This document shows positions 9,739 through 46,930 of a DNA stretch of 64,000 nt, one piece after another. The stretch's first letter is position 1. Every line of letters starts with the position of its first letter. A program made the position numbers and the translations under genes. Origin of the DNA: an uncultured archaeon (GTDB lineage Archaea > Iainarchaeota > Iainarchaeia > Iainarchaeales > JAAZKV01); NCBI GenBank assembly GCA_964551375.1, contig CAZKBG010000001.1:757150-821149 (forward strand). Direction: 5' to 3'. The notes beneath the pieces were generated by a model. The model was not told where the DNA came from, searched no databases, and saw nothing but the letters and a program-made list of their open reading frames with translations.

Positions 9739-10389
9739 ATGTTTGGCAGAAGAGGGCAGGGCACAATAGAATACCTTGTAATTATTGCAGTTGTGATAGT
9801 TTTAGCGCTTGTTGTTTCTTATTTTATGATGGGCTCGCTTGGCTCGGCTTCAGCAGCAGAAAAGGCGAGTCTTAAAGCAGCTTGGCAGTCAAAAGAAGTG
9901 GGAATTGCTGATTTTGCAGTTGATTCAAGCGGAAGCGGAAAAATCGCATTGATGAACAACTCTGGCGAATTTGTGAGAATAAAGAAAGTTTATGTTGAAG
10001 GAGTGCTTGTTTATGACGGAACGCTTTCACTTGGAAATTTTGACAAATATGTAGTGGGCTCTTTTGCAAGCAATGTCGCAGCGTGCAGTGCGGACAGAAG
10101 ATATAGAATAAGAATAGTTTACGAGGCTGAAAGCGGGCTTGAAGATGAAGTGAGCGGAGATTTGTACCCAGAATGCATGGCAAGCGCATCACAAATAAAC
10201 ACTTTGCTTTTAAGCATCCCAAATATTGACTCAAACATAAATATCGACTTGAATGTATCAACAGGACTTTTAGGACTTGCAAACTCACAGGCAGTGAATA
10301 CAAGAAACCTTGACAATATTTCACAAGGCTCATCCCCAGACTCAAATGTAAAATATGACACTAATGTTGTGACATTAAATACAGTGTGA
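9739..10389 (+). CDS. pilin-like protein with class III (type IV prepilin-like) signal peptide
   Basis: N-terminus MFGRRG|QGTIEYLVIIAVVIVLALV. A short basic leader is followed by Q+1 and E+5, then a hydrophobic helix (DUF361-like archaeal pilin motif). The stop lies 4 nt before the start of the first giant gene. Confidence 0.7.
   Translation: MFGRRGQGTIEYLVIIAVVIVLALVVSYFMMGSLGSASAAEKASLKAAWQSKEVGIADFAVDSSGSGKIALMNNSGEFVRIKKVYVEGVLVYDGTLSLGNFDKYVVGSFASNVAACSADRRYRIRIVYEAESGLEDEVSGDLYPECMASASQINTLLLSIPNIDSNINIDLNVSTGLLGLANSQAVNTRNLDNISQGSSPDSNVKYDTNVVTLNTV
9764..10184 (+). repeat. direct repeat copy A (5' two-thirds of pilin gene); about 88% identical to 30620-31044
   Basis: Visible long identical runs shared by the two copies, e.g. 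ttttatgatgggctcgcttggctcggcttcagcagcagaaaaggc and aactctggcgaatttgtgagaataaagaaagtttatgttga. Confidence 0.8.
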
Positions 10390-10393
10390 GTTT

Positions 10394-13300
10394 ATGGGTT
10401 ATTCTAAATTTTTATTGGCTTTTATATTTATTCTTTTTTTGACAAATGTTTTTTCAGTAGACATTTCCACATGCGCTGATTTATACAATATGGCTGAATC
10501 TTCAAGCTCATTTACCGTTACAACCAATATTGACTGCGCAGCATATACAGCCGCGGGAGATAAATTTGGAAACGCAATAAATTTTTACGGAACGCTTGAC
10601 GGAGGAAACTATACTATAAGCAATATTTATGTAAATGCTCCAGGGGCAGATTATGTCGGAGGAATATTTAGAACAGTAAACAGTGTCAGCAATTTAACTC
10701 TTCAAAATGTAAAAATATATGCAAGCAACAGAAGCTATGTCGGGGGGCTTGCGGGACAATCAAGCGGAACAATAACAAATGTCACAGTAAGAGACTCAAA
10801 TATTTTTGGAAACAACTTTGCAGGAATAGTTGTGGGAAACTCTTTAGGACAGGTGCTGAATTCGTCAGTTTATGATTCAAATATTTCCGCAAACCACGCA
10901 GTTGGAGGAATGGTCGGCAGAGTATATCATAACATGCTGAATCCAAGAGTAAGCAATGCGATAATCAACGGAGTTGGGGATGCTTCAAATGCATATGGAG
11001 TGGGGGGAGTTGTTGGAACAATAGACACAACAAATAGAAGAATAGATTTGAATGATTCAGTTGTGTCGCTTGGAAATTTATACGGAACATACTTTGTGGG
11101 CGGAGCAGTAGGGGTGGCAACATGCTATTACTGCTCAAATCCAGTAACAATGAACCGAATCACAGTTAATGCAAATCAAATAACCGGAAATCAATACGTG
11201 GGCGGGCTTGCCGGGCACTTTCCATTGCCAATAACAATAACCGATTCAAACGCCACAGTGACTCAAATTACAGGAGACCGAGCAAATTCAGGCTCAATAG
11301 GAGGGCTTGTAGGGTACGCAAATGTTGTGGGGAGCAATTTATCCTTCACAGGAAATATTTCAATAAATTCCTCAGGCAGCACAACAGGGTATATCGGCGG
11401 GCTTGTCGGAAGAATTGATTCAGGCTCAATAAGAAACGCAAAAGCAGATGTAAACATTGACACTACGCTTGGCTCGGTAACAATGGATAATGTCGGCGGA
11501 ATTTTGGGATTTGATAATTCAAATACAACAATTACCGACGCAAACGTAGTCTTTGGCGTAATAAAAGGAAAAAATTCTGTCGGCGGAATTGCAGGAAATA
11601 TTACAACTTCAATTGTTCGAACAAGAGTTACCGGAACAACACTTACCGGGGTAGGCGCTGATACTTATTATGGGACTGGCGGAGTTGCGGGAACTGCAAG
11701 AGCCGACAGCAGAAGAATTGATTTGAATGACTCAGTTGTTAACATTACTACTATTAACGGAACAAGATTTACTGGGGGAATAGTCGGAGTGGGGTGGTGT
11801 TATTACTGCTCTAATCCAACAAATGTTTTCAACTCTTCTTTTACAGGCTCTGCTTTGAACGGTTATCAGTTTGCTGGAGGAATCGCAGGATATCTACCAA
11901 GCGGAACATCCCTAATTTCAAACTCAACGGCAAGAATTCCTCAAATGACTTTTTCAGGCTCTGACCCTTACTATTCAGGCGGAGTGGGAGGAGCAGTAAT
12001 TAACATAACTAATTCAAATTTTATTGGAAATATTGACGTAAGCAAATCTTCCAACACAGGAAGCGGATACTTTGGGGGAATTGCAGGACAGGCAAATTCA
12101 ATCTCAGACTCATGGGCTGACACAAATCTTAACTTAATGCTCGGAACATATGCGAGTAATTATGTCGGCGGGCTCGTTGGAAATTACACAGGAAATATTA
12201 CTTCCAGCTATGCAAAAGTCCACCATATTTGGGAACCAAGCACTTCAAACGGGACAAACATAGGGGGGCTTGCAGGGCAGGGGGCTACTGCGGGCGGATA
12301 CATAATAGACTCAAATGTAACTTTTAATGATATTAACGGAGGAAACAGCGTAGGAGGGCTTGCAGGATATACTCAAGGAAATATTTTGCGAACAAAAGTA
12401 ATTGGAAACACTTTAAGCGGAACAGGCGCCGATTCATATTATGGTGTCGGCGGGCTTGTCGGAACAATAAGAGCCGACAGCGGAAGAGTTGACCTAAATT
12501 ATGCAAATGTAAATATTACTACAATTAACGGAACAAGATTTACGGGCGGAATTGTGGGAGCTGGATGGTGTTATTACTGCTCATACACAACAAATGTATT
12601 TAACTCAACTTTCACAGGCTCTGCTTTGAACGGTTATCAGTTTGCTGGAGGAATCGCAGGATGGCTTCCAAGCGGCGCATCAAAAATATATGATTCAAAT
12701 GCGCGAATTACAAGAATTTATCTTTCAGGTTCCAACCCATATTATTCAGGAGGAGTTGGCGGACAGGCATATGATATAAACAATGCAAATTTTATAGGAC
12801 TAATTGAGGTCAACAAATCTTCCAACTCAGGAGACGGATACTTTGGAGGACTTGCGGGACACGCAAACAGTATTTCATATTCCTGGGCTGACACAAACCT
12901 TAACCTTCATCTTGGAGCATATGCGAGTAATTATGTCGGCGGGCTCGTTGGAAATTATACTGGAAACATTGACCACAGCTGGGTTAGGGTTCATCATATT
13001 TTTGAGCCTGCAACAAGCAATGGCGGAAGAGTGGGAGGACTTGCAGGGCAGGGGGCTACTGCGGGCGGATATATTTCTGATTCGAACGCCGTGTTTACTG
13101 ATATTAACGGTGGAAATGATGTTGGAGGGCTTGTTGGTTATGCGCAGGGAAATATTTTAAGAAATAAAGTTACTGGAACAAATGTTAGAGGGACTGGTTA
13201 TTTAGACGGTTATAGTTTGTATGGTGTTGGCGGATTAGTTGGAACAATGCAGGCAGGAGCGCGCTCCGATGTAAATGATAATGTTGTTGATTTGAATTCG

Positions 13301-16300
13301 GTTGTTGCTACAAGTGGTGCCGGCGGACTAGTCGGCTCGCAGTATTGTTACAGCTGTTCTTCAAGCTACTGGATGGGAGTAAATAGATCTAAGGCTGATT
13401 TGAACTGGCTGATTGGGACTACGCACGTGGGCGGCTTAGTCGGACACATTCCGCTTACAGCAAGTTTTATTGCCGACTCAAACGCAAGGATTGTAAAAAT
13501 TTTGGCCACAGGTTCCGACCCATATCACATTGCAGGACTAGCAGGAGCAAATGCAGGAGACATTATCAGGTCAAATTTTGTTGGAGAAATTGATGTTAGA
13601 AAAACAAGCGGAAGCGGAAACAACGGATACATTGCAGGACTTTCAGGGTCAGTTAGAAATATTTATTCCTCATGGGCTGATACAAATATTAACATAATGC
13701 TTGGAACTTTTTCCACAAACTATGTCGGCGGATTAACAGGATACTATTCAGGAAATATTACTTCAAGCTGGGCAAGGGTTCACCATATTTGGGAGCCTGC
13801 AACAAGTAACGGCGGAAGAGTGGGAGGACTTGCAGGATATGGGGCTACTGCGGGCGGATATATTTCTGATTCGAACGCAATGTTTACTGATATTAACGGT
13901 GGAAATGATGTCGGAGGGCTTGTTGGTTATGCGCAGGGAAATATTTTGAGAAATAAAGTTACTGGAACAAATGTCCGCGGCGCAGGACTTGCTGATGGGT
14001 ACAGTGTATATGGTGTTGGCGGTTTAGTTGGAACTATGCAATCAGGAGCGCGCTCTGATGTAAATGATAATTCAGTTGATTTAAATAGTGTCAGCGGAAC
14101 AACGGGTGTTGGCGGGTTAGTGGGTTCGCAGTATTGTTACAGCTGTTCTTCAAGCTACTGGATGGGAGTAAACCGTTCAAGCGTTCGGTTAAATTTTTTG
14201 TCTGGAACAAATTATATTGGCGGAATTTTTGGGCACGCTCCATTGACAGGGACATTTATTTCTGACTCAAATGCAAGAATTCCAAAGATTACTGCTTCAG
14301 GAACAGACCCATATCACGTTGGGGGATTATGCGGACAAACAGAAGGAGATGTGATAAGGTCAAACTTTATTGGAGAAATTGATATTAGAAAAACAAGCGG
14401 GAGCGGGAATAACGGATACATTGCAGGACTATGCGGAGCAGTAAGAAATATTTCTTACTCGTGGGCTGATACAAACATTAACATTCTACTTGGGGGATAT
14501 TCAACAAATTATGTCGGCGGATTAACAGGGTGGCTCAGAGGAAATATGACTTACAGCAATGCAATACTTGGGCATATTTGGGAACCTGCAACTTCAAACG
14601 GCGGAAGAGTAGGCGGATTAGTAGGGCAAGTAGCAGTAGCAGGCGCAAGCATTTCAGATTCAAATGTTATTTTTGTTGATATTAACGGGGGAAATGATGT
14701 TGGGGGGCTTGTTGGTTATGCGCAGGGAAATGTTCTAAGGAGCAAAGTAACTGGAGTAAATGTTCGAGGCACAGGACTTGAAGATGGTTATAGTTTGTAT
14801 GGTGTCGGCGGTTTGGTTGGGACTATGCAGTCAGGCGCGCGTTCTGATGTAAATGATTGTTCAGTTGATTTGAATAGTGTAGTGGGACTTGCAGGAGTTG
14901 GAGGAATAGTCGGCTCTCAGTATTGTTATAGTTGTTCTTCAAGCTACTGGATGGGAGTAAATAGAAGCGTTGCAAGAATTAATTCATTAATCGGAGCCAA
15001 ATACACAGGCGGAATTTTTGGGCACGCTCCATTAACAGGAAGTTTTGCAGCAGATTCAAATGCAATAATTACAAGAATTTACGCGGCGGGGAGCGACACT
15101 TATAATATTGGGGGAGTAGTAGGCGCAAACGCAGGAGATGTTATGCGCTCATATTTTATTGGAACAATTGATGTAAGCAAATCTTCAAACACTGCTAACG
15201 GCGGAATTGGAGGAGTTGCAGGGTCAGTGCGAAATGTATACCAATCCTACGCAGACACAAATATTGATTTTACATTAGGGAATTATTCAGGAAACAGCGT
15301 TGGGGGAGTTGCAGGAAGCGCGGTTACAATAAATGACTCCTACGTTAGAGCAGCTTATATTAAATCAACGCGCTCGGGCTCATATACAGGAGGACTTGTT
15401 GGGTACGCTCAAGGAAATATTAATCACTCATACGCGGCAGTTGCCGATGTAAATGGATATTCATCAGTTGGAGGGCTTGTGGGATACTTTACAAGCTCTT
15501 ACACGGTTTCAAATTCATTCTTTGTGGGAAAAGCAAAAGCATCAAGCTCGGTTGATAATAATATTTTAGCAGGCGCAAACGGAAGCGTATCAAACTGCTA
15601 CTTTAACAACACAGGCTCAAGCGTTGTTTACAAATTAAATGCGGGCTCAACAACAGAACAAGACCCAAACGCGGGCTCATCATTTTTCAAAGGCAATTCT
15701 ACAAACCCTCCATTTGGAGCGGGAGTAGGCGACTGGAATTTTAGCGGAATATGGTATGTGTGGTCAAACGATTATCCTAAATTTGTTAAAAAACTGGCTT
15801 ATTACACAAGCGGAATATTCATTTCTCCAGCAATCAATCTTGGCACCCCAAAAAGATTTGTTTCATTCGACTTCAACGGCAATTTTCCGAACGGAACAGA
15901 TGTAAATTTCCAAATAAGAACCGCTGACTCAAACTCAAATCTTTCAAGCGAAGACTGGGTGGGGCCAAATGACAGCACAAGCGAATATTACAACAGCACA
16001 AGCACAAAAGCAATAACAACCGCGCATGATTTTGATTCATGGATGCAATGGAGAGCAAAACTTTATACAAACGACGAAATAATCACTCCTACAATTTACT
16101 ACGCTGATGTAAACACAGTGGGAATAGGAAGCGTAATATGGTATGGACTATCTGACGGGGCGCAGTGGAGCTCGTTTGATTATAATGTGGTATCAACAAA
16201 CGGCGGAAGCGTTGACTGGTTCTACGGGCCGTCAACAACAGGTCCATGGACTGCGACATCAATGCTTCTTAGCGGACAAAATGTTATAGGGATAAAAGCA

Positions 16301-16378
16301 GTAGCAAGCGCTTCAATTGACGCAAATACTCCAAATATAAGCCCTGATTTGAACGTGTCTTACTCAAGACAAAACTAA
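10394..16378 (+). CDS. giant secreted GLUG-repeat surface protein (1994 aa)
   Basis: Signal peptide MGYSKFLLAFIFILFLTNVFS. N-terminal conserved module (I-S-x-C-x-x-L...NIDC...G-T-L-D-G-x-x-Y-x-I-x-N-I). Dozens of YVGGLxG / VGGLVGY GLUG-type units arranged in about 260 aa super-repeats. Diverged copy of the C-terminal domain shared with the three downstream paralogs. Confidence 0.8.
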   Translation: MGYSKFLLAFIFILFLTNVFSVDISTCADLYNMAESSSSFTVTTNIDCAAYTAAGDKFGNAINFYGTLDGGNYTISNIYVNAPGADYVGGIFRTVNSVSNLTLQNVKIYASNRSYVGGLAGQSSGTITNVTVRDSNIFGNNFAGIVVGNSLGQVLNSSVYDSNISANHAVGGMVGRVYHNMLNPRVSNAIINGVGDASNAYGVGGVVGTIDTTNRRIDLNDSVVSLGNLYGTYFVGGAVGVATCYYCSNPVTMNRITVNANQITGNQYVGGLAGHFPLPITITDSNATVTQITGDRANSGSIGGLVGYANVVGSNLSFTGNISINSSGSTTGYIGGLVGRIDSGSIRNAKADVNIDTTLGSVTMDNVGGILGFDNSNTTITDANVVFGVIKGKNSVGGIAGNITTSIVRTRVTGTTLTGVGADTYYGTGGVAGTARADSRRIDLNDSVVNITTINGTRFTGGIVGVGWCYYCSNPTNVFNSSFTGSALNGYQFAGGIAGYLPSGTSLISNSTARIPQMTFSGSDPYYSGGVGGAVINITNSNFIGNIDVSKSSNTGSGYFGGIAGQANSISDSWADTNLNLMLGTYASNYVGGLVGNYTGNITSSYAKVHHIWEPSTSNGTNIGGLAGQGATAGGYIIDSNVTFNDINGGNSVGGLAGYTQGNILRTKVIGNTLSGTGADSYYGVGGLVGTIRADSGRVDLNYANVNITTINGTRFTGGIVGAGWCYYCSYTTNVFNSTFTGSALNGYQFAGGIAGWLPSGASKIYDSNARITRIYLSGSNPYYSGGVGGQAYDINNANFIGLIEVNKSSNSGDGYFGGLAGHANSISYSWADTNLNLHLGAYASNYVGGLVGNYTGNIDHSWVRVHHIFEPATSNGGRVGGLAGQGATAGGYISDSNAVFTDINGGNDVGGLVGYAQGNILRNKVTGTNVRGTGYLDGYSLYGVGGLVGTMQAGARSDVNDNVVDLNSVVATSGAGGLVGSQYCYSCSSSYWMGVNRSKADLNWLIGTTHVGGLVGHIPLTASFIADSNARIVKILATGSDPYHIAGLAGANAGDIIRSNFVGEIDVRKTSGSGNNGYIAGLSGSVRNIYSSWADTNINIMLGTFSTNYVGGLTGYYSGNITSSWARVHHIWEPATSNGGRVGGLAGYGATAGGYISDSNAMFTDINGGNDVGGLVGYAQGNILRNKVTGTNVRGAGLADGYSVYGVGGLVGTMQSGARSDVNDNSVDLNSVSGTTGVGGLVGSQYCYSCSSSYWMGVNRSSVRLNFLSGTNYIGGIFGHAPLTGTFISDSNARIPKITASGTDPYHVGGLCGQTEGDVIRSNFIGEIDIRKTSGSGNNGYIAGLCGAVRNISYSWADTNINILLGGYSTNYVGGLTGWLRGNMTYSNAILGHIWEPATSNGGRVGGLVGQVAVAGASISDSNVIFVDINGGNDVGGLVGYAQGNVLRSKVTGVNVRGTGLEDGYSLYGVGGLVGTMQSGARSDVNDCSVDLNSVVGLAGVGGIVGSQYCYSCSSSYWMGVNRSVARINSLIGAKYTGGIFGHAPLTGSFAADSNAIITRIYAAGSDTYNIGGVVGANAGDVMRSYFIGTIDVSKSSNTANGGIGGVAGSVRNVYQSYADTNIDFTLGNYSGNSVGGVAGSAVTINDSYVRAAYIKSTRSGSYTGGLVGYAQGNINHSYAAVADVNGYSSVGGLVGYFTSSYTVSNSFFVGKAKASSSVDNNILAGANGSVSNCYFNNTGSSVVYKLNAGSTTEQDPNAGSSFFKGNSTNPPFGAGVGDWNFSGIWYVWSNDYPKFVKKLAYYTSGIFISPAINLGTPKRFVSFDFNGNFPNGTDVNFQIRTADSNSNLSSEDWVGPNDSTSEYYNSTSTKAITTAHDFDSWMQWRAKLYTNDEIITPTIYYADVNTVGIGSVIWYGLSDGAQWSSFDYNVVSTNGGSVDWFYGPSTTGPWTATSMLLSGQNVIGIKAVASASIDANTPNISPDLNVSYSRQN
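11030..15600 (+). repeat. intragenic tandem super-repeat array (about six copies, 771-790 bp period, one CxxC motif per copy)
   Basis: Copy starts near 11044, 11701, 12472, 13262, 14051 and 14838. Near-identical stretches such as gatattaacggtggaaatgatgt...gggcttgttggttatgcgcagggaaat occur at about 13098, 13887 and 14683. Protein-level repeats RSDVNDNxVDLNSV...GSQYCYSCSSSYWMGVNRS. Confidence 0.85.
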
Positions 16379-16443: not shown

Positions 16444-17256
16444 ATGGAAAATTTAATTGTAATAAAACTTGGCGGTTCGTCAATTACAAAAAAAGCCGAA
16501 GGAAAATTTGAAATGAACGAAACTGTTTTAAAAAGCGCAGCAAAACAAATTTCCCAAGCTCTCAAATCCGATAATTCTCTTAAATTAATTCTTGTGTGCG
16601 GAGTGGGACCGTTTGGGCACACAAATGTAGTAAAATACGATTTGAATAATGGGATAAAAACAAGCGCGCAAGAAAAAGGAGTGGAAGTGACAATTAAGGA
16701 CTGCAATTTTGTTGCTGAATCAGTTATGGACGCGCTGGAAAACGAAGGACTGAAAACTGAACACGTTCCAGGATATCTTGTGTGCAAACAAGACGGAAGA
16801 AAAGTAATTTCATTTGACGCAGAGCCTTATACTAATGCAGTTGAGAAAGGAATAATTCCAGTAACAACAGGAATAATGGTAAAAGACAAGTCGCTTAAAT
16901 GGAGCGTGATGAGCGGAGATGCTGCAATTGCGCAAATTACAATGAGACTCATTCCAAAAAAAGTAGTGATAGGAACAGATGTTGACGGAATATTCACAGG
17001 CGACCCAAAAGAAGACAAAAAAGCAAAACTAATTGAAGAAATTTCAAATACAAATCTTGAAAGCGTACTAAAAAAAGCGACAAACTCAAAAGCAGTGGAT
17101 GTAACCGGCGGAATGAAAGGAAAACTTGAAAAATTAGCAGAAACACTCAACGGAACAGAATGCCAGATTTTCAATCTTTTCACTGACGGAAATTTAAAAA
17201 AAGCGCTTCTTGGAGAAAAAATGACTTCCACCAAGCTTAAAATTTGGATTAATTAG
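16444..17256 (+). CDS. ipk: isopentenyl phosphate kinase (amino-acid kinase family)
   Basis: N-terminal IVIKLGGSSITKK, then a GVGPFGH motif. Amino-acid-kinase fold hallmarks. ATG at 16444; the ORF track starts at 16417 inside the upstream hairpin. Confidence 0.8.
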   Translation: MENLIVIKLGGSSITKKAEGKFEMNETVLKSAAKQISQALKSDNSLKLILVCGVGPFGHTNVVKYDLNNGIKTSAQEKGVEVTIKDCNFVAESVMDALENEGLKTEHVPGYLVCKQDGRKVISFDAEPYTNAVEKGIIPVTTGIMVKDKSLKWSVMSGDAAIAQITMRLIPKKVVIGTDVDGIFTGDPKEDKKAKLIEEISNTNLESVLKKATNSKAVDVTGGMKGKLEKLAETLNGTECQIFNLFTDGNLKKALLGEKMTSTKLKIWIN

Positions 17257-17313: not shown

Positions 17314-20300
17314 GTGAACTCGAATTTTTTTAAACTAGCTGTTGCAGTCATTGTTCTATTAATTTCGGCAACCACTTTTTCAGCGACTATTTCTAATTGC
17401 ACTCAGCTACAGGCAATAAGCGGAAGCACCGATTACAATCTTACAGCCGATGTTGACTGCACAGGAGTAGCATTTACTCCAATAGCATCATACACAGGAA
17501 CGCTAAACGGAGTCGGATACAAAATAATCGGACTCAATATTAATCTTCCAACTACTGACAGAGTGGGATTATTTGGAAATGTTTCAAGCTTCACAATCAA
17601 AAATATTATTTTTCAGGACGCAAATATAATCGGGCAGGATTATACAGGAGTAATTGTGGGAAGCGGCAGCCCGCTAATATCAAACGTTTCAGTAATTAAT
17701 GCAAGAGTAAATGGAAGATCTTATGTTGGAGGAATGGCTGGAAGTTATGGGCGAGCATCGTTTAATGGAAATCTGGTTAGCGGACTAAATTTAACTGCGA
17801 CCGGAAGCTATTCCGGCGGAATGATTGGACAATACTCAGCAAGTAACAATCCTGCGGTGGATATTAATGATACAGTAGTTGACATAACTTCTATGACTGG
17901 AGCCCAGTATGTGGGCGGAGTGGTGGGATATAATTGGAACAGCTATAACGGTGTAACAAGATACTATCGAGCAAAAGTAACAATAGGCACACTAACAGGT
18001 GGAAGCTATGTGGGTGGAATTGTAGGAAGACTTGGCGGAACAATTTCAGATTCAAATGTAACAGCTGGAAGAATATTTACTTCAGATTATGCGGCTTATG
18101 TCGGGGGACTTGCTGGGGATAATCACGATTTAGGGTACGGCGGAGGAATTACAAACTCATGGGCAAGAGTAAAAATTGACATAAATAAATTCAACGGAAG
18201 CGGAGCATCAGACGGGTATGTTGGAGGCTTAGCTGGCTCAAACTTAGGACTTGGAATTACTGATTCATGGGCAGATGCAAATATTGACGTATCACTTGGA
18301 ACTTATTCAGGATATTATGTTGGAGGGTTAGCAGGAAAAAGCGGAACAATTACAAGATCTTACTCTACAGGGGCTTACATAAGATCAACCGCTGGTTTTG
18401 GCGGATATGCTGGAGGACTTGCAGGACTATTGTCTGGAAGTCTAGTGGATTCTAATTCTTCAATTCCCTTAATTGACGGCGGAACAAATGATTACGTTGG
18501 AGGATTAATTGGACAATGGGCTGGCTCAAACGGGATTTTGAGAAGCAAATATGTTCCGGGATCAGTTGGAAATATAACTGCAAGAAACCGTGTTGGAGGA
18601 ATAGCTGGAGATAGTTCTGCAGGTGGAGCAAGCGCAGATATTAATGATTGTGTAGTTGACTTTAACTCAATTTCAGGAAATGATTATGTCGGCGGAATTG
18701 TGGGATACATGTGGAACGGCTCAACAGGAGTGAGCAGAATATATCGTGCACAATCAACAATAACAACGATGACTGGCGGAAGTTATATTGGCGGTGTTGT
18801 TGGAAGACTTGGAGGAATGCTATCTGACTCTAATGCAGTTATAAAAAATATTAATGCATCAGGATATGCTGCTTACGTTGGTGGATTAGCTGGAACTAAT
18901 GCGAATTTGGGATACGGCGGAGGACTCGCACGCTCCTGGGCAAGAGTGCAGATTACAACAAACAAAACCAGCGGCTCAGGCGCATCGGACGGATACTTAG
19001 GCGGACTTGCCGGCTCAAACGCGGGATTTGCAATTACTGATTCATGGGCGGATGTAAACATTTACGCAAACGTTGGAACTTATTCAGGATATTATGTTGG
19101 AGGGTTAGCAGGAAAAAGCGCGGGAGCATCAAACTCTTATTCAATAGGAACAATATTGCAATCAACAAAACAATTTAACGGATATGTTGGAGGACTTATT
19201 GGAGAATCAAGCGGAAGCATCACTGATTCAAATTCTGCAATCCAAACAATTGACAGCGGAAGCGGAGCATATCAAGGATCATCTGTTGGCGGATTAGTTG
19301 GAAACTGGGCTGGGGGCTCAAGCATTCTAAGATCAAAATATGTCGGGCGTAATATTATTGGAGGAGCGCAGACAGGCGGAATTGTTGGAAGAGTATACAC
19401 AAGCTCAAATCCAAGCGCTGATGTGAATGACATTACAGTTGACGCAAATTCAGTAATTGGAACAAATCAAATTGGCGGAGCAATAGGATTCATGTGGAAC
19501 TCATATAACAGAGTTTCAAGAATAGCAAGAGCAAAGGTGACGCTTAATTATTTGACAGGAACTGAAGAAGTGGGCGGAGTAATAGGAAGACATCAGGAAG
19601 GATATGCACTGATTGATTCAAACTCAGTGATTCCAAATATTTATGCATATAACACAGGAAAATATGTCGGCGGAATAGTTGGCTGGAAAGACAACGGCTC
19701 TTATGCTGATGCTATTTACATGTCAAACTGCTGGTCCATAAACCAAATTCAAACTAATAAATATAACGGAGGTTCGACTACTGAAGGATATATTGGAGGA
19801 CTTGCGGGAAAAAGCGACGGACCAATTTCTAATTCTTGGGCAGATGTAAATATTGACGCAAATGTAGGAACTTATTCAGGATATTATGTCGGGGGAATTG
19901 TTGGATATGGAAGCACAATTACAAACTCTTATGCAATTGGGGATTCAATTAATGCAGCAAAGGCAACCAATGGAAGCATTGGCGGAATTGCCGGATATGC
20001 CACAACAATACTTAACACTTATTCAAGATTTACGCTTGTTAATGGGGGAACAACTTCTGGAACAGGCGTTGGAGGATTAATTGGAACAGGCGCCGTAAAC
20101 GCAACGATTACAAATTCTTATGTCATAGCAAATGATGTTAATGGATATACGCGAGTTGGGGGAATAGCAGGAGATTTAGGCTCAAATGCCACAGTGACGA
20201 ATTCTTTTTTTGTCGGCAGAGTAAAAGCATCAAACAGTTATGACAATAATATCTATGGATACGCAGGGTATGACCAAACGCAGGCAAACAAAGATATTAA

Positions 20301-21138
20301 TTGTTATTTTACAAATCCAACTTTATCAAGCAATGTGTATAAAGAGGACAAAACTTCAACACCAACTTATGTAACTAACGCAGGCGCAAGTTACTTCAAA
20401 GGAAAAACAAGTTTAATTCGAATAAAACCTCCATTCTCAAACAGCACAGCTCCTGACTGGAATTTTAATTATACTGCACACGCAGGAGTATGGTTTGGAT
20501 GGAATGCAGAATACCCTCACTTCATTACAGACCCTAATCCATCACGAGTACCGATTGGTGAGTATCAATCAAAGGCAGTTAGTCTGGGCGGAAAAAAGAA
20601 ATGCATTGCTTTGACAACTGATATGACAATAATTTCCGACAGCAATATTAAGATTCAGATTCAAGTTGCTGACAATAATGTAACTTGGTGGACCACTCCA
20701 AACTGGGTTGGCCCTGATGGAACAAGCAATACTTATTATTCAAACGGAAATTACGCAGTTCCTGATGTTAATGCAGACGGGAACTGGGTAAGATGGAAAG
20801 CAATACTTTATTCAACAAGCGATTATTTGACTCCGTCGCTAAAGACAGTTGATATTAACTGCATACCGACTGGAGAAATGGTGCTTGTGGCGAATGCTAG
20901 TAATGTTGTTTGGGAAGGATTTACGTATAATGCGTTAGTTGGGGGAATTCATGGTTCGCTTGAGTGGTTGTATAAGGTTGGGAATAATAGTTGGCTTAGT
21001 GCGGATAATAATGTTTTTTCTGTTTTGAATAGTGGGAATCCGCTTTATATTAAAGCAAAACTTACCGGGACAATAGATTCGAACGGGCCGATAATTGATA
21101 ATAATGTAGTTGTGTCTTATAGACTAAATGTTAACTAA
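17314..21138 (+). CDS. giant secreted GLUG-repeat surface protein (1274 aa), GTG start
   Basis: GTG start directly after an in-frame TAA; no downstream ATG precedes the signal peptide NSNFFKLAVAVIVLLISATTFSA. N-module FSATISNCTQLQ...VDC...GTLNGVGYKIIGL. GLUG units. Conserved C-terminal domain (WNFNYTAHAGVWFGWNAEYPHF...NCIPTGEMVLVAN...IDSNGPIIDNNVVVSYRLN). Confidence 0.8.
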   Translation: MNSNFFKLAVAVIVLLISATTFSATISNCTQLQAISGSTDYNLTADVDCTGVAFTPIASYTGTLNGVGYKIIGLNINLPTTDRVGLFGNVSSFTIKNIIFQDANIIGQDYTGVIVGSGSPLISNVSVINARVNGRSYVGGMAGSYGRASFNGNLVSGLNLTATGSYSGGMIGQYSASNNPAVDINDTVVDITSMTGAQYVGGVVGYNWNSYNGVTRYYRAKVTIGTLTGGSYVGGIVGRLGGTISDSNVTAGRIFTSDYAAYVGGLAGDNHDLGYGGGITNSWARVKIDINKFNGSGASDGYVGGLAGSNLGLGITDSWADANIDVSLGTYSGYYVGGLAGKSGTITRSYSTGAYIRSTAGFGGYAGGLAGLLSGSLVDSNSSIPLIDGGTNDYVGGLIGQWAGSNGILRSKYVPGSVGNITARNRVGGIAGDSSAGGASADINDCVVDFNSISGNDYVGGIVGYMWNGSTGVSRIYRAQSTITTMTGGSYIGGVVGRLGGMLSDSNAVIKNINASGYAAYVGGLAGTNANLGYGGGLARSWARVQITTNKTSGSGASDGYLGGLAGSNAGFAITDSWADVNIYANVGTYSGYYVGGLAGKSAGASNSYSIGTILQSTKQFNGYVGGLIGESSGSITDSNSAIQTIDSGSGAYQGSSVGGLVGNWAGGSSILRSKYVGRNIIGGAQTGGIVGRVYTSSNPSADVNDITVDANSVIGTNQIGGAIGFMWNSYNRVSRIARAKVTLNYLTGTEEVGGVIGRHQEGYALIDSNSVIPNIYAYNTGKYVGGIVGWKDNGSYADAIYMSNCWSINQIQTNKYNGGSTTEGYIGGLAGKSDGPISNSWADVNIDANVGTYSGYYVGGIVGYGSTITNSYAIGDSINAAKATNGSIGGIAGYATTILNTYSRFTLVNGGTTSGTGVGGLIGTGAVNATITNSYVIANDVNGYTRVGGIAGDLGSNATVTNSFFVGRVKASNSYDNNIYGYAGYDQTQANKDINCYFTNPTLSSNVYKEDKTSTPTYVTNAGASYFKGKTSLIRIKPPFSNSTAPDWNFNYTAHAGVWFGWNAEYPHFITDPNPSRVPIGEYQSKAVSLGGKKKCIALTTDMTIISDSNIKIQIQVADNNVTWWTTPNWVGPDGTSNTYYSNGNYAVPDVNADGNWVRWKAILYSTSDYLTPSLKTVDINCIPTGEMVLVANASNVVWEGFTYNALVGGIHGSLEWLYKVGNNSWLSADNNVFSVLNSGNPLYIKAKLTGTIDSNGPIIDNNVVVSYRLNVN

Positions 21139-21155
21139 AGTTAACTGATAAATTG

Positions 21156-21176
21156 GGCAATTTGCCTTGTTTTAAT
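21156..21176 (+). terminator. hairpin plus T-run after giant gene 2
   Basis: gggcaa ttt gccttgtttt. Confidence 0.35.
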
Positions 21177-21183
21177 CCTGAAA

Positions 21184-21233
21184 AAAGCTTTTATTTAACT
21201 TAAACCTAATTCTAGCACAAAGCAGGGAACTTA
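21184..21233 (+). promoter_or_regulatory. conserved promoter/leader element upstream of giant gene 3
   Basis: aaagcttttatttaacttaaacct...agcagggaacttaa immediately precedes ATG. Paralogous to 17265-17313. Confidence 0.5.
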
Positions 21234-24200
21234 ATGATGGCAAATTTTAACAAATTACTTTTAGGGATCTTATTAATTTTAATAATAAGTCAGGTTTTTG
21301 CATTTAGCGGCGGAACTGGAACAAGCGGAGACCCTTACAGAGTAAATGCCTGCGCAGATATTGACTGGATGGATACTAATGCATCTACAAAATCAGCATA
21401 CTATGTTCTTGATTCAAATGTGGACTGCGGAGTATCGCCTTATAATACAGGAAGCGGGTTTACTCAAGTAACAGGATTTGCAGGATCGCTTGACGGACAA
21501 GGATACTGGGTAAAAAACTTAATGATTTACCTTCCAACAACAAATAATGTTTCACCATTTGCTGCAGGAAGCGCGTTCACAATAAAAAATATTGGATTTG
21601 ATGTAAATATCACAGGACAGGATTATGTATCCGGATTCATGACTGATTATTTGAATAGGGACTTAAATAACATAAAAGTAAGCGGAACAATAATAGGGAG
21701 AAATTATGTGGGCGGAATTACATCAAGAAGCAATGCGGGAATAAAAATCACAAACAGCTCTGTTGACTTGACTTTGATAAGCGGAAATGAATATGTAGGG
21801 GGACTTGCCGCATACTATGGAGGGGATTTCAATTACTGCACAATAAAAATAAACCGAATAGAAGGGCAGTTTTCTGTGGGCGGAGCAAGCGGATGGATGT
21901 TTAATGGAAGCAATGGAGTGTCCTATATTCAAAATACAACTGCTGACATAAACCTACTAAAAGTAACACACACTTCAGCTAATGGCTATTACACTTTAGT
22001 CGGAGGATTAGTCGGAAGATTTTCTTCAAGCGGATTTATAAGAAGCGCAAATGTGCGAGTAAATTTAATTGATGTCAATAATGCGACTGCAGACCCTGGA
22101 AAAATAGGGGGGCTTGTCGGAGGACATGACCGCGCAGGCGGATATCTTTATGATGTAAATTTTACAGGAACAATAAATTATCGAAACACATCTGGGGCAG
22201 CGTACCTTGGGGGAATTGTGGGGCACGAGGAATCAGGGCCAATTACTTATTCCCGCGCGGATATTAACATTGACACAAATCTTAGCTCAGCAAGCGGAAC
22301 ATATGTAGGCGGAATTATTGGAAGCTCAAGTTATGATTTGAATAATATTTATGTTAATTCATCATACATTTATGCAGCGGGCACAAATGGAAATTATGTC
22401 GGAGGAGTGGGCGGCTCTTCAAGCGCAGTTTATAACGCGGTGGCTGATATTGGAGAAGTAAGAGGATTAAGCCAAGTCGGCGGGCTGCTTGGAGGCTCAG
22501 GAATTGCAGCAGGAGTAATATCTTCAAGATTAAATGCAAAAACAATTGTCGGAACAACCACCGAAATAGGCGGATTTATCGGATACGCAAAAGGGGACGT
22601 AAATTACTGCGATTCGAACGTTCAAATCTTAATTGGCTCTCAATATGTTGGAGGGCTTCTTGGAAATTCATTCAATCAAAGCGATGCAAGCTCAAAAGTT
22701 TATATGACTAATAGTTATGTTCGGGACATGAATGTAACAAATCCAACAAGCGTGGGCGGGCTTGTGGGGCGATTTTCAGGAAGAAGAGTGGAACGTTCTT
22801 TTGCGGAAGTAAAAAGACTATATGTTGATAATTCAGTCGGAAACGACGCGCTCATCGGAGGGCTGATTGGACAAACTGGATACTCTGACTGGACAATAAG
22901 AGACTCAAATTCACGAGCGCAGATAGATTACACTTACAGCGGAGCATCAAACAATAGTTATATTGGAGGAATTGCAGGAAATACTGGAACTCCTATAAGC
23001 GGATGCAGGGCAGATGTAAATATTGATGCTGATTTAGGCACAAAAGCTCCAAATTATGTGGGCGGGATTACTGGAAAATCAACCGGCACAATAACAAACT
23101 CTCACGCAAGCGGAGCTTACATAAAAGCAAAAAATAGCGGAGGCACTGGGGTAGGAGTGGGCGGAATTAGCGGAAGCTCATACACAGTATATAATTCAAC
23201 TTCAAATTTTATTGATATAAACGGAAACCTTAATGTTAGCGGAATCAGCGGAAACCTTGCTATTGGGGATGTGAACGGCTCAACTGCAACAATAAGCGGA
23301 ATACTTTACGGAAAATACAATATCGGCGGAGCAGTAGGAAACGGAGCAAATAATTCAGTAGCAGTATTTAATTCAGGCGCAACAATAAACAAAATATATG
23401 CTGATAATTCAACAGCAAATGATATGTCTGTAGGTGGAGTGGTGGGGGTTATTACAAATGCAAGAACAGTAACTGGTTGCTGGGCAAGGATTGGAACAAT
23501 TTATGCAAAAAATACGAGCGCATCAAACACTGGCGGAGTGGGAGGAGTTGCGGGATATGTTTATCAAAACTCAAACAATGCCCCGATGAGAGATTCAAAC
23601 GCAATAGTTTCACTAATACAATATGAAAGCACAAGCACAGGAGATGCATTTGTTGGAGGACTGGCTGGGAGACAAATGGGGCTTGTATCAAATTCTTGGG
23701 CGGATGTAAATATTGACGCGTCAATTGGAACATACACTGGCGGATATGTGGGCGGGCTTGTCGGGTACGCATATGGGGTAGTATCAAATTCGTGGGCAAG
23801 AGGAAATTATATTAAAGCAACAAAAACAAATTCGCAATATGTTGGCGGACTTGTGGGAAGATCTACTGGGATAACAAATTCCTATTCAATATTTTCTGAT
23901 ATAAACGGGCTGACAAAAGTGGGCGGGCTTGGGGGATACTCAAGCGGAGCGGTGCTTGACTCAAATTCAGTTTTAAATAGCGTTAATGGGACAAGCAATG
24001 TTGGCGGATTAATTGGACTCGGAGATTCTGATGTTAACAGGTCAAAAACAATAATTGGCACAATAACTGGGACAATGCTTGTGGGGGGAGTAATAGGCGA
24101 ATTATCCAACAGCTCCACATTTATGTATGATTTAAGCGCGGATGTAAATTTAATAAAAGTAACACACACAGCAGGCGGACAAATTAATGCAGGGGGAATA

Positions 24201-25811
24201 ATCGGGCTTGCAACAAACACAAAAGGAATGAGACAAGCTGCTGCGAGAATTAAATTAATGGATATAAATAATTCAAGCGGAAGCGATGCAGGCGGAATTG
24301 GAGGAATTGCGGGATATTTGTATCACAATGCAAATACAGCACAACTCTTAGACGCAAATTCAACAGTTCAAATAAATTACACAAACTCAAGCACAGGCGC
24401 AGGATATATCGGGGGAGTAGTTGGGTTGCATAATGGATATATTTCAAACTCTTGGGCTGACTCAAATATTAATGCAGAACTTGGAACAAGAAGCGGAACT
24501 TATGTCGGCGGACTTGCGGGAAATGCTGCAAGTTATATTTCAAATTCATATTCGACAGGCGGGAATATCCTCGCATCAAAGACAGGTGGGGGATATGTTG
24601 GTGGACTTGCTGGAAGAATTGGCGGAGCAGCAACAAATGTCTACGCACTCTACAATGACGTCAACGGAGTTGACTATACTGGAGGACTTATAGGAAGCGG
24701 GCAAGGCGCAGTAAATACATACACAATAAATCGAACAGTGTATGGTGCAGATAGAGTAGGGGGATTAATCGGCTATTCCAGAGGGGATATAAACACTTCC
24801 TACTCAGGAGATGCAAATGTAATTGGAAGCACAAATGTAGGGGGAATAACAGGATACTATGATCCGCCCGGAACAACATATCACATAAATAATTCATTTA
24901 CAACAACAAGAGTAACAGGAAGTTCAGTAACAGGCGCAGTAACAGGATATGTAGTAACATACAGCTGGCCTTCGCCTCCAGTAGTAAACACATACTACAC
25001 TTTCGGCTCGGCAGCGGCTGGAAGAGGGACACTTGAAAGCGATGGACCATCATATTTTAAAGGAAAAGGAAAAACACTTCTTGGAATAACCCAAGGAACT
25101 TCCCCAAAACACCCTTATGCAAATCCTGATGCAAATTGGAATTTTAATTACACAGGGCACCCTGGGCTTTGGTACGGCTGGCAGTTAAGCTACCCGCATT
25201 TTACAACAGACCCTATTGTTACTTATGTTCCTAATGGAGAATATCAATCAAGAGCAATTGATTTAAGCTCAATGAAAAAATGCATCGCGCTAACTACAAA
25301 CATGATAAAACCTACTGACAGCAATATCAAAATCCAAATACAAGTTGCTGATAATAATACTTCATGGTGGGCATCTCCAAACTGGATGGGGCCTGACGGG
25401 ACAGACAATACTTATTATTCAAACGGAAGTTATTCAATTCCTGACATTAATGCTGATGGAAATTGGATAAGATGGAGAGCAGTATTCACTTCCTCAAGCG
25501 ACAGCTTAACTCCAACTCTAATAAGCATTGACTTTAACTGCATACCAATAGGGGAAATGGTGTTAATTGCGAATGGAAATAATCTTAACTGGAGAGGGAT
25601 AGCTTACAATGCGATAACCGGCGGAATAAACGGCTCGCTTGAGTGGCTTTACAAAATAGGAAGCGGAAATTGGGATTCAATTGATAATAATTCCTTCCCT
25701 GCGCTAACCACTGGAACTCCTCTTTATATTAAAGCAATAATGACTGGAACAATAGATTCCAATGGACCAATAATGGATAATAATATTGTTTTATCCTACC
25801 GCCCTAATTAA
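21234..25811 (+). CDS. giant secreted GLUG-repeat surface protein (1525 aa)
   Basis: Signal peptide MMANFNKLLLGILLILIISQVFAFS. N-module GDPYRVNACADIDWM...VDCGVSPYNTGSGFTQVTGFAGSLDGQGYWVKNL. GLUG units. Conserved C-terminal domain. Confidence 0.8.
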   Translation: MMANFNKLLLGILLILIISQVFAFSGGTGTSGDPYRVNACADIDWMDTNASTKSAYYVLDSNVDCGVSPYNTGSGFTQVTGFAGSLDGQGYWVKNLMIYLPTTNNVSPFAAGSAFTIKNIGFDVNITGQDYVSGFMTDYLNRDLNNIKVSGTIIGRNYVGGITSRSNAGIKITNSSVDLTLISGNEYVGGLAAYYGGDFNYCTIKINRIEGQFSVGGASGWMFNGSNGVSYIQNTTADINLLKVTHTSANGYYTLVGGLVGRFSSSGFIRSANVRVNLIDVNNATADPGKIGGLVGGHDRAGGYLYDVNFTGTINYRNTSGAAYLGGIVGHEESGPITYSRADINIDTNLSSASGTYVGGIIGSSSYDLNNIYVNSSYIYAAGTNGNYVGGVGGSSSAVYNAVADIGEVRGLSQVGGLLGGSGIAAGVISSRLNAKTIVGTTTEIGGFIGYAKGDVNYCDSNVQILIGSQYVGGLLGNSFNQSDASSKVYMTNSYVRDMNVTNPTSVGGLVGRFSGRRVERSFAEVKRLYVDNSVGNDALIGGLIGQTGYSDWTIRDSNSRAQIDYTYSGASNNSYIGGIAGNTGTPISGCRADVNIDADLGTKAPNYVGGITGKSTGTITNSHASGAYIKAKNSGGTGVGVGGISGSSYTVYNSTSNFIDINGNLNVSGISGNLAIGDVNGSTATISGILYGKYNIGGAVGNGANNSVAVFNSGATINKIYADNSTANDMSVGGVVGVITNARTVTGCWARIGTIYAKNTSASNTGGVGGVAGYVYQNSNNAPMRDSNAIVSLIQYESTSTGDAFVGGLAGRQMGLVSNSWADVNIDASIGTYTGGYVGGLVGYAYGVVSNSWARGNYIKATKTNSQYVGGLVGRSTGITNSYSIFSDINGLTKVGGLGGYSSGAVLDSNSVLNSVNGTSNVGGLIGLGDSDVNRSKTIIGTITGTMLVGGVIGELSNSSTFMYDLSADVNLIKVTHTAGGQINAGGIIGLATNTKGMRQAAARIKLMDINNSSGSDAGGIGGIAGYLYHNANTAQLLDANSTVQINYTNSSTGAGYIGGVVGLHNGYISNSWADSNINAELGTRSGTYVGGLAGNAASYISNSYSTGGNILASKTGGGYVGGLAGRIGGAATNVYALYNDVNGVDYTGGLIGSGQGAVNTYTINRTVYGADRVGGLIGYSRGDINTSYSGDANVIGSTNVGGITGYYDPPGTTYHINNSFTTTRVTGSSVTGAVTGYVVTYSWPSPPVVNTYYTFGSAAAGRGTLESDGPSYFKGKGKTLLGITQGTSPKHPYANPDANWNFNYTGHPGLWYGWQLSYPHFTTDPIVTYVPNGEYQSRAIDLSSMKKCIALTTNMIKPTDSNIKIQIQVADNNTSWWASPNWMGPDGTDNTYYSNGSYSIPDINADGNWIRWRAVFTSSSDSLTPTLISIDFNCIPIGEMVLIANGNNLNWRGIAYNAITGGINGSLEWLYKIGSGNWDSIDNNSFPALTTGTPLYIKAIMTGTIDSNGPIMDNNIVLSYRPN

Positions 25812-25905
25812 AATGATCTTTTTTAACGCCTCAATTTTAATTAATGGTCAATGGCAAGGATTAAATATCTAAAATAACTAACTCTTCTGACTTGTTGGTC
25901 GAATT

Positions 25906-30595: not shown

Positions 30596-31279
30596 ATGCA
30601 TGCAAAAAAAAGGGGACAGGGAACAATTGAATACCTTGTTATAATAGCGGTTGTAATTGTGCTTGCATTAGTAACATCATATTTTATGATGGGCTCGCTT
30701 GGCTCGGCTTCAGCAGCAGAAAAGGCTTCGTTAAAAACAGCATGGCAGACAAAAGAAGTGGGAATTGCCGATTTTGCAGTTGATTCAGACGGAGCGGGAA
30801 AAATTGCCATAATGAATAACTCTGGCGAATTTGTGAGAATAAAGAAAGTTTATGTTGACGGAGTGCTTGTTTATGACGGAACGCTTTCACTTGGAAATTT
30901 TGATAGATATGTAGTGGGTTCTTTTGCTGAAAATGTGACTTCTTGCAGCGCGGACAGAAGATACAGTATAAGAATAATTTACGAGGCTGAAAGCGGGCTT
31001 GAAGATGAAGTGAGCGGAGACTTGTACGCAGAATGCATGGCAAGATTGAATGAAGGCGCGCTAAGATTCTTGCAGTTAACCGACGCGAATTTGAGTCTTG
31101 GGGACACAATCAACGTTTCAGCAGCAACAGGATACTTTACTTTAATTGACGCCAACTTTGTGAACTCAAGAAGCATAACTTATGGAAATGAAGGCTTTGG
31201 AGAGTACGGCGGCGTTGATTTAAACACAACAAGAAACACCGATAACAACTATATAGAACTTGACGTACAAGCTGAATAA
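30596..31279 (+). CDS. pilin-like protein with class III signal peptide; paralog of 9739-10389
   Basis: MHAKKRG|QGTIEYLVIIAVVIVLALV. The first roughly 145 aa are nearly identical to the upstream pilin-like protein; the C-terminus has diverged. Confidence 0.7.
   Translation: MHAKKRGQGTIEYLVIIAVVIVLALVTSYFMMGSLGSASAAEKASLKTAWQTKEVGIADFAVDSDGAGKIAIMNNSGEFVRIKKVYVDGVLVYDGTLSLGNFDRYVVGSFAENVTSCSADRRYSIRIIYEAESGLEDEVSGDLYAECMARLNEGALRFLQLTDANLSLGDTINVSAATGYFTLIDANFVNSRSITYGNEGFGEYGGVDLNTTRNTDNNYIELDVQAE
30620..31044 (+). repeat. direct repeat copy B (pairs with 9764-10184)
   Basis: See copy A. The two copies bracket about 20.8 kb. Confidence 0.8.
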
Positions 31280-44894: not shown

Positions 44895-44987
44895 TTTGTT
44901 GGAGAGATTTTAGGATTAAGTAAAAATAGAAAGTCAAAGGAAAAAGAATTATATTTGGAGTAAATTTTTAGAAATAAAAATTGGAGT

Positions 44988-46862: not shown

Positions 46863-46930
46863 AACTAAGCCCGCGGACGGAGATTATAAAATATAATTTA
46901 GAAAAGAGTTTAACCTAAGGGAGAAAGCAA

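Follow-up and report, generated by a model that had tools for sequence, protein, structure and literature searches.

Proteins with GLUG repeats occur widely among bacteria and archaea. They are routinely labelled adhesin-like, and their function is essentially unstudied. The closest known structures are the GLUG beta-helices of the M26 IgA1 proteases (S. pneumoniae, 6XJA/6XJB/7JGJ; G. haemolysans, 7UVK/7UVL) and of BACOVA_03286 (3N6Z), and the fold predicted for the archaeal protein described below is alike. Among archaea, Methanimicrococcus blatticola carries 15 acquired GLUG proteins described as adhesin-like (PMC9723798), and in Haloquadratum a GLUG coding sequence lies near halomucin (PMC4330952). 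Neither of these papers reports a super-repeat or a Cys-pair feature for those archaeal proteins, and their function is only presumed (PMC9723798, PMC4330952).

The window considered here is the whole stretch of 64,000 nucleotides that was analysed. The genes of interest in it are four giant GLUG-type genes, G1 to G4, and their immediate neighbours:

9739-10389, + strand: archaeal type IV pilin-like gene (Pfam Class_IIIsignal and Pilin_N), ending 4 nt before the start of G1
10394-16378, + strand: G1, a single intact ORF of 5,985 nt whose translation is a 1,994-aa GLUG-repeat protein (Pfam GLUG)
16444-17256, + strand: isopentenyl-phosphate-kinase-like gene (IPK; Pfam AA_kinase, synteny in relatives, Logan contigs)
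17314-21138, + strand: G2, with the same super-repeat and no CxxC
21234-25811, + strand: G3, with the same super-repeat and no CxxC
25906-30537, + strand: G4, with the same super-repeat and no CxxC
30596-31279, + strand: second pilin-like gene, which closes the cluster and is 68% identical to the pilin at 9739-10389

The neighbours of G1 are class III signal-peptide pilins and an AcnX-type mevalonate pathway, with the best named matches in Diapherotrites/Iainarchaeum. In four relatives (83-92% AcnX identity), IPK lies directly after AcnX-small and no G1 orthologue is found at the locus. Judged from this gene order, in this Iainarchaeota-like genome and not in the four relatives, the pilin and GLUG genes have been inserted into the mevalonate operon, and the IPK-like operon gene is now stranded between G1 and G2. 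The junction between the pilin and AcnX-small is matched exactly by an independent Logan contig. The organism also encodes PFOR and an ADP-forming acetyl-CoA synthetase, which gives it the look of an anaerobic fermenter. No Rfam family or tRNA was found in the window, and a promoter and terminator scan with sigma-70 models, which are not applicable to archaea, gave hits at chance level.

In Pfam, G1 scores 34.5 bits for GLUG (PF07581; E 2.1e-8), where the gathering cutoff is 20.5. A Kyte-Doolittle scan of the protein finds one hydrophobic segment only, at an N-terminus that is the same in the paralogues. The N-terminal region also holds a second Cys pair, C27 and C48, with cysteines at similar positions in G2-G4 and in P0002, a paralogue from the same genome. 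Hydrophobicity, Pfam and NCBIfam searches of G1 found no TM helix, PGF-CTERM, sortase motif or lipobox, and NCBIfam has no family for any giant protein of the locus. The proposal of the first-pass annotation that G1 is an exported archaeal protein is supported by the signal-like segment, the lack of any other TM-like segment, the Pfam GLUG match, the beta-helix model and the archaeal neighbours. An identical G1 is found at NCBI on a 946-kb contig, which is the sole full-length copy in public data; no orthologue was found there, an exact look-up in a contig index returned no record, and a genome-contig scan with G1 gave 14 pattern matches and 0 relatives. The parts of the gene are as follows:

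10394-10459, + strand: predicted Sec-type signal peptide (MGYSKFLLAFIFILFLTNVFSV), with an approximate cleavage site
10760-15499, + strand: super-repeat array of six full modules and a partial seventh (profile tiling, repeat periods of 771/789 nt, autocorrelation)
11123-11134, + strand: CxxC 1 (TCYYCSNP)
11798-11809, + strand: CxxC 2 (GWCYYCSNP)
12569-12580, + strand: CxxC 3 (GWCYYCSYT)
13346-13357, + strand: CxxC 4 (QYCYSCSSSYWMGVNRS), model residues 131-134, at a strand end followed by an 8-residue loop
14135-14146, + strand: CxxC 5 (QYCYSCSSSYWMGVNRS), model residues 394-397
14924-14935, + strand: CxxC 6 (QYCYSCSSSYWMGVNRS), directly after which, at 14936, the Logan short-read contig L011 begins
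12956-14533, + strand: the two modelled modules (aa 855-1380), a right-handed beta-helix
15491-16375, + strand: C-terminal region common to G1, G2-G4, P0002, P0120, P0133 and P0155

The periodicity of G1 is far beyond chance: the self-identity of the protein at an offset of 263 is 0.28 against a background of 0.083 +/- 0.010 (autocorrelation, z = 19). Profile tiling places the full modules at aa 123-376, 375-600, 597-857, 855-1119, 1117-1380 and 1381-1643 and the partial seventh at aa 1645-1702. A repeat search recovers families of 300 nt with start-to-start distances of 771 and 789 nt (66-86% identity), together with a 66-nt family surrounding the CxxC (89-92% identity). Tandem Repeats Finder reported nothing on the array, because the period is above its 500-nt limit. 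The first residues of the six CxxC motifs are aa 244, 469, 726, 985, 1248 and 1511, so that successive motifs are 225, 257, 259, 263 and 263 aa apart. The shaft holds about 50 GLUG turns of the GG[ILV]xG type in all; there are 7, 8, 8, 8 and 8 turns between successive CxxC motifs and 6 more in the last, partial stretch. Motif spacing, repeat families and autocorrelation thus confirm the six tandem super-repeats, each with a CxxC, that the first-pass annotation had described. The period it gave, 771-790 bp, holds for the later intervals (771, 777, 789 and 789 nt) and fails for the first (675 nt), and its extent of 11030-15600 is roughly right, the profile reaching slightly wider. About ten GLUG units had been assigned to each copy, where a full copy has 8 turns. 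There are indeed two types of Cys motif, distributed otherwise than had been thought: CYYC is found in copies 1-3 and QYCYSCSSSYWMGVNRS in copies 4-6, not 3-5.

The copies are old. Whole units are 52-75% identical in nucleotides, and even the closest pair (75%) has a dS of 0.83, the lowest value among the copies, whose dN/dS is 0.23-0.37. The first copy is 35-38% identical to the others in protein, every 300-nt block diverges by at least 14%, and the longest exact runs common to the copies are 47-49 nt. Similarity at the 771-nt offset extends over 11560-13170 and at the 789-nt offset over 12790-15190, the two being out of phase. The near-identical stretches noticed earlier around 13098, 13887 and 14683 are confirmed: identity is 92-97% between nt 13000-13190 and 13789-13979 (a patch at about 13015-13195 and its +789 copy), and about 55 nt at 13100, 13889 and 14678 are near-identical in three copies. 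Comparison of the copies shows stepwise tandem duplication inside G1, with one old copy, two at the 771-nt period and three at the 789-nt period in a different phase. It likewise shows that the copies have diverged since under purifying selection, with a few short patches of near-identity. To judge from these divergences, the array is a fixed, selected and stable architecture, with no sign of a rapidly changing or contingency locus.

A slower kind of change is seen among the paralogues. Tiled with the G1 module profile, the five genes have 6 (G1), 3, 2 full plus 2 partial, 4 and 4 modules; the four paralogues tile 3-4 times, so module number has changed over evolutionary time. Of the earlier suggestion that the array expands and contracts, this much stands; of ongoing change there is no sign, with a dS of at least 0.83 and exact runs of at most 49 nt. 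A SWADxNI rung, once per module, is common to the paralogues at intervals of 690-810 nt. The six G1 modules form one clade apart from the paralogue modules, and the modules group by gene. Cassette-like gene conversion among the paralogues was considered and rejected, as no inter-gene tract exceeds about 80% identity.

For structure we modelled the two modules of aa 855-1380. With high predicted confidence the segment folds into a right-handed parallel beta-helix like those of the IgA1-protease GLUG domains; these domains, which are non-catalytic, and an autotransporter passenger are its best structural matches. In both modelled modules, pLDDT is lowest at the CxxC loops (about 70). A thioredoxin-type CxxC redox protein can be discarded, since the model is all-beta and without helices and the CxxC sits at a strand end and loop. 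The C-terminal core (about aa 1804-1919, nt 15803-16150), which has no Pfam match, was modelled as a beta-sandwich with a mean pLDDT of 60.7; in this model it has only a weak similarity to discoidin/CBM32-type domains (Z <= 7.1).

Despite the 35-38% protein identity to copy 1, C131, Y132, C134 and S135 (model numbering) are invariant in all six G1 modules, and the Cys codons vary among the copies (TGC, TGT). Elsewhere, the same loop column has GCCSN at two places in P0002. In two distant GLUG proteins it holds C[NSA]C six times (P0022, from an ENA metagenome, a lipoprotein-like GLUG/Flg_new protein of 2,277 aa) and CxxC (P0087). The pair is missing from G2-G4 and from two of the four P0002 modules, so a Cys staple is dispensable for the fold. 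A metagenome-contig scan with a 44-nt CxxC-coding consensus gave 0 matches.

On balance we lean towards reading G1 as a secreted, probably surface-exposed, adhesin-like beta-helix rod, the shaft of which is a stable array of Cys-stapled modules. The adhesion role is a prediction from architecture, and surface attachment is assumed, since no anchor (TM, PGF-CTERM, sortase-type) was found. If one GLUG unit is one coil with a rise of 0.48 nm, a module would measure about 3.8 nm and the shaft about 24 nm. The reach of the fibre would then be set by the number of modules, and this would account for module count being the main difference among the five paralogues. One turn in eight would carry a longer, somewhat aromatic- and Ser-rich loop right after the GG[ILV]xG turn, most likely stapled in G1 by a short-range disulfide between both cysteines of CYxCS. 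Stiffened loops may thereby be presented along the rod at intervals of about 4 nm, as possible repeated contact sites, and the common C-terminal beta-sandwich may be a ligand- or cell-binding end. As a counterpoint to the staple, extracellular disulfides may be unstable in the habitat of an anaerobic fermenter.

Could the array instead be a contingency locus, with frequent recombination giving differing copy numbers and fibre lengths within one population? Its copies are tandem and in frame, module number differs among the paralogues, the short 92-97% patches suggest occasional exchange between neighbouring copies, and short-read Logan assemblies break within the array. We nevertheless consider such length variation improbable in view of the low identity and high dS of whole units and of identical tracts that reach only 47-49 nt; moreover, the two sequencing runs in which the organism occurs show 0 and 1 mismatches across the 3' end of the array, and no variant allele or orthologue was found in public data. 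The assembly breaks also bear on a misassembly that could have inflated or collapsed the module number: the k-mer based Logan assemblies fragment at repeats (contig ends at 9849, 14936 and 18325), and full-length G1 occurs only in the NCBI record. An artefact of this kind is nonetheless very hard to credit where the ORF is unbroken across 5,985 nt, the copies are distinguishable in every 300-nt block and both G1 flanks are matched exactly in independent assemblies.

The chemistry of the loops allows other readings as well. The motifs could bind metal or form intermolecular cross-links, either Zn(Cys)4 bridges between parallel rods in the manner of the Rad50 zinc hook or disulfides that bundle fibres or tie a partner cell. 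There are six regular, invariant CYxCS motifs on exposed flexible loops, and a reducing habitat favours thiolate-metal chemistry over disulfides. We find this unlikely, however, as the CC of P0002 and the CxC of P0022 at the same loop are poor chelators that can still pair in a short-range disulfide, the loop has no conserved His or Asp partner among the six G1 modules, and G2-G4 are without the pair altogether. Successive motifs of a chain lie 225-263 residues from one another on the rod, which makes it impossible for two of them to share one metal and excludes a zinc ribbon. The pattern of Cys pairs across GLUG proteins, as far as sequence can tell, favours an optional, short-range local disulfide over a metal site. 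A bolder version, to which we give little weight, would have the CYxCS loops act as reactive sites about 4 nm apart that, through metal bridging or intermolecular disulfides, zip rods to each other, to the adjacent pilin-like filament or to a host surface; the island pilin-G1-(IPK)-G2-G3-G4-pilin would on this view represent an apparatus for host attachment that this DPANN archaeon acquired recently. It is also doubtful that G1 is a beta-helix enzyme (a polysaccharide lyase, hydrolase or depolymerase) and not an adhesin-like rod: its best structural matches are non-catalytic, HExxH is absent from the whole sequence, no catalytic family was matched in Pfam or NCBIfam, and the repeat is monotonous, the invariant shaft columns of the six modules being mostly Gly with no conserved acidic cluster.

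Read as a stapled, adhesin-like rod, G1 is a real but fairly ordinary repeat protein of a small DPANN archaeon, and current understanding is not overturned by it. It is a clean example of how rods are made from an 8-turn higher-order module, with module number varying between paralogues, and it shows that GLUG proteins unrelated to one another have an optional Cys-pair loop at one and the same structural position. For the biology of DPANN, the locus offers a lineage-specific island of four giant putative surface proteins between duplicated pilin genes; in an organism whose genome is about 1 Mb, they are candidates for mediating contact between cells.

Set against the known systems, G1 is without the Peptidase_M26 domains (PF05342 and PF07580, no Pfam match) and the HExxH of the M26 IgA1 proteases; it differs from these and from BACOVA_03286 in being archaeal, in arranging its turns in six 8-turn super-repeats and in having a periodic Cys-pair loop. 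Like the archaeal adhesin-like GLUG proteins, it is a large, exported, lineage-specific acquisition with an assumed adhesion role; those proteins, unlike G1, often carry Flg_new domains, and P0091 of Methanimicrococcus blatticola is among the G1 protein matches at 26% identity. Of the features used to recognise fibrillar adhesins, G1 has the repetitive stalk and lacks the cell-surface anchor, and its C-terminal beta-sandwich, given the weak discoidin/CBM32-type similarity, is at most a candidate for the adhesive domain. In alpha C/Rib, Bap/Esp and Als the repeats are typically near-identical DNA, and copy-number polymorphism has been observed. G1 resembles them in its in-frame tandem modules, a stalk in which copy number would set length, and is unlike them in units of 52-75% nucleotide identity with a dS of at least 0.83. 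The beta-helical passenger and TPS adhesins (Vag8, 7AKV; pertactin, 1DAB/2IOU; Ag43; HMW1; EtpA) have no sequence relationship to G1 and use the type V secretion of diderm bacteria, whereas G1 carries a predicted Sec-type signal without a beta-barrel or TPS domain. P0022 and P0002, whose super-repeats measure about 190-250 aa, resemble G1 in carrying a Cys pair in the same post-GLUG loop. Elsewhere, P0022 is rich in cysteine (50 Cys), and two of the four P0002 modules have lost the pair. The pair takes the form GS[IVL]xC[NSA]C[SD] in P0022, where it occurs six times, and GCCSN in P0002, where it occurs twice, so that the paired cysteines are separated by one residue in P0022, by none in P0002 and by two in G1.

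The GLUG-repeat gene G1 occupies window positions 10394..16378 (+) as one open reading frame of 1,994 codons, and its repeat and CxxC periodicity is real. The tandem super-repeats with one CxxC each that the first-pass annotation had described are borne out by this frame, by repeat families and by the self-identity of the protein, which reaches 0.28 at an offset of 263 residues against a background of 0.083 +/- 0.010 (z = 19). Repeat searches recovered 300-nt families with periods of 771 and 789 nt at 66-86% identity, and a 66-nt family across the CxxC region at 89-92% identity. Twelve of the 18 cysteines make up six CxxC motifs, at successive intervals of 675, 771, 777, 789 and 789 nt:

CxxC motifs of G1
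nt 11123, + strand, CxxC 1 (aa 244)
nt 11798, + strand, CxxC 2 (aa 469)
nt 12569, + strand, CxxC 3 (aa 726)
nt 13346, + strand, CxxC 4 (aa 985)
nt 14135, + strand, CxxC 5 (aa 1248)
nt 14924, + strand, CxxC 6 (aa 1511)

By profile, the array extends over aa 123-1702 (nt 10760-15499), and its first copy is short and strongly diverged, with 35-38% protein identity to the others. The near-identical stretches noticed at first reading are present: nt 13000-13190 match the copy 789 nt downstream at 92-97% identity, and about 55 nt are almost identical across three copies, at 13100, 13889 and 14678. Four details of the first description have to be corrected: the extent of the array and the short, diverged first copy, both given above, and two more. 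The modules carry 7, 8, 8, 8, 8 and a partial 6 GLUG turns, so that a full module has eight rather than the ten or so units claimed; and copies 1-3 are of the CYYC type and copies 4-6 of the CYSC...WMGVNRS type, where the second type had been assigned to copies 3-5.

Similarity at the 771-nt offset spans 11560-13170 and that at the 789-nt offset spans 12790-15190 in a different phase, a pattern that indicates two or more duplication rounds whose breakpoints differed, plus one older copy. The closest module pair has a dS of 0.83, dN/dS is 0.23-0.37 across all pairs, and the longest exact runs between copies are 47-49 nt; this makes the array old and its sequence subject to purifying selection. 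A small number of patches at 92-97% identity suggest that gene conversion has acted locally from time to time, and no long, highly similar tracts were found between G1 and its downstream paralogues G2-G4. The first-pass idea that length changes through repeat gain and loss is supported on an evolutionary timescale, and not as a current hypervariable mechanism.

One 263-position profile tiles all five paralogues, namely G1 (6 modules), G2 (3), G3 (2 full and 2 partial), G4 (4) and P0002 (4), the last encoded elsewhere on the same 946-kb contig, where its neighbours are dCMP deaminase, archease and RtcB genes (L001). G2-G4 (window 17314-30537) have the same super-repeat as G1, of about 250-275 aa. 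Across the whole cluster each module contains one copy of a marker rung, SWADxNI...YVGG, at intervals of 690-810 nt (family D1). The modules group by gene, so the split of the paralogues preceded the duplications, or homogenisation, which took place inside each gene. No orthologue of G1 turned up among 5.8 billion clusters searched through a word index or among 1.84 billion representatives scanned in full with HMMER, its close relatives being the in-genome paralogues only; DNA scans of genomes and metagenomes were likewise empty. The next-best relatives outside the genome match the paralogues, P0120 being 53% identical to G4 and P0133 82% to P0002.

The alignment of the six modules shows C131, Y132, C134 and S135 to be invariant. 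The Cys codon choice varies among copies. Of 775 module-like segments, drawn from 246 GLUG proteins and aligned to the profile, only 11 have Cys at both columns. Besides the six G1 modules, two proteins have a recurrent Cys pair in exactly this loop. P0002 (L001 377-4879) has a vicinal GCCSN in modules 1-2 and a Cys-free AGYTNEFYRN in modules 3-4; in P0022, which is lipoprotein-like and combines Flg_new with GLUG domains, the loop GS[IVL]xC[NSA]C[SD] occurs six times with a period of 191-226 aa. A further protein, P0087, has CxxC in the same loop (CSSC and CQRC...YGVNR). In G2-G4 the long loop is kept without Cys; that of G2 is rich in aromatic residues, e.g., YNWNSYNGVTRYY. Aromatic residues are moderately enriched in the Cys-pair loop (19% vs 10% overall).

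It had been proposed that each repeat is made rigid by its Cys pair, acting as a disulfide or a metal site. Rigidification is plausible, and the comparative data appear to point towards a local disulfide: since the two cysteines can be separated by 0, 1 or 2 residues, and the pair can be lost without loss of the module, an optional intraloop disulfide staple fits. A metal site is, we infer, a poorer fit than such a staple, and with motifs 225-263 residues apart on the rod there can be no joint metal coordination within one chain. A metabolism with PFOR and ADP-forming acetyl-CoA synthetase suggests a reducing habitat, a caution for this reading. Another pair of cysteines, C27 and C48, has similar positions in G2-G4 and P0002. 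N-x-S/T sequons directly follow the Cys pair in most copies (window 13364-13375 and equivalents), as VNRS (copies 4-6), FNSS and FNST (copies 2-3) and, in P0002, SNYT and VNKS; with 47 sequons in G1 overall, the loop may be N-glycosylated.

The GLUG motif scores above the Pfam threshold in G1, G2, G3 and G4, and the NCBIfam search gave no match. The sole hydrophobic segment of G1 is the N-terminal, signal-like MGYSKFLLAFIFILFLTNVFSV; neither an HExxH motif nor a C-terminal anchor was found in the protein. Two modules (aa 855-1380) were modelled from an alignment whose 14 rows were G1 modules, segments of the paralogues and a single distant homologue, giving an all-beta, periodic structure (pLDDT 88.8, pTM 0.89). 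In both modelled modules the CxxC is predicted at a strand end, followed by an 8-residue loop that is the lowest-confidence part of the model (pLDDT about 70). The C-terminal 295 aa are common to the paralogues and P0120, P0133 and P0155; a good model was obtained for no more than a core of about 115 residues, and its predicted likeness to discoidin/CBM32-type beta-sandwiches is weak (Z <= 7.1).

The cluster is bracketed by a direct repeat of type IV pilin-like genes with class III signal peptides:

Pilin-like genes
9739-10389, upstream copy
30596-31279, downstream copy

The two are 68% identical overall, almost identical across roughly the first 150 aa, and 85% identical over the first 300 nt. 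The window also carries archaeal AcnX-type mevalonate pathway genes. The best named homologues of AcnX come from Candidatus Diapherotrites/Iainarchaeum MAGs. Window 9700-31300 was compared with L002, L004, L005, L006 and L008, and four relatives with AcnX identity of 83-92% were examined. In all four, AcnX-small is directly followed by AA_kinase (IPK), and the examined region has no pilin or GLUG gene; in the closest (92%), POR directly follows IPK, without the pilin+G1 and G2-G4+pilin blocks. The window reads AcnX-small, pilin-like gene and G1, IPK, G2-G4 and the second pilin-like gene, then POR. Because the blocks are missing in the examined regions of the relatives, the island is lineage-specific; the two blocks are insertions into an otherwise conserved operon of AcnX, AcnX-small, IPK and POR. 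The POR beta gene (TPP_enzyme_C) of the closest relative (L008 6705-7499) has intein-type matches, Intein_splicing and PT-HINT, and its window orthologue (33610-34527) has none.

Independent Logan assemblies of the runs SRR12133403 and SRR12133404 match both island junctions exactly. One of their contigs, L012, has one base difference from the window over 2,891 nt. The Logan contigs end at 14936, just past the sixth CxxC motif, at 18325, within the G2 SWAD rung, and at 9849, within the duplicated pilin 5' end; stopping inside repeated stretches, they confirm the flanks and not the module count.

Elsewhere in the window, a giant ORF (50695-56169; 1,824 aa, 26 Cys) has weak Ig-like, CarboxypepD_reg and SdrD_B matches and no GLUG motif, and the two ORFs after it (562 and 844 aa) have no Pfam match. 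Orc1/Cdc6 and SepF genes and a GrpE-DnaK-DnaJ operon (61931-63181 and 44196-48331) form an ordinary archaeal housekeeping context.

The leads of most use are the recurrence of the Cys-pair loop among unrelated GLUG proteins and, in this DPANN genome, the island with pilin-like genes at both ends. With its six 8-turn modules, G1 is a new orphan among the known GLUG beta-helix surface proteins.
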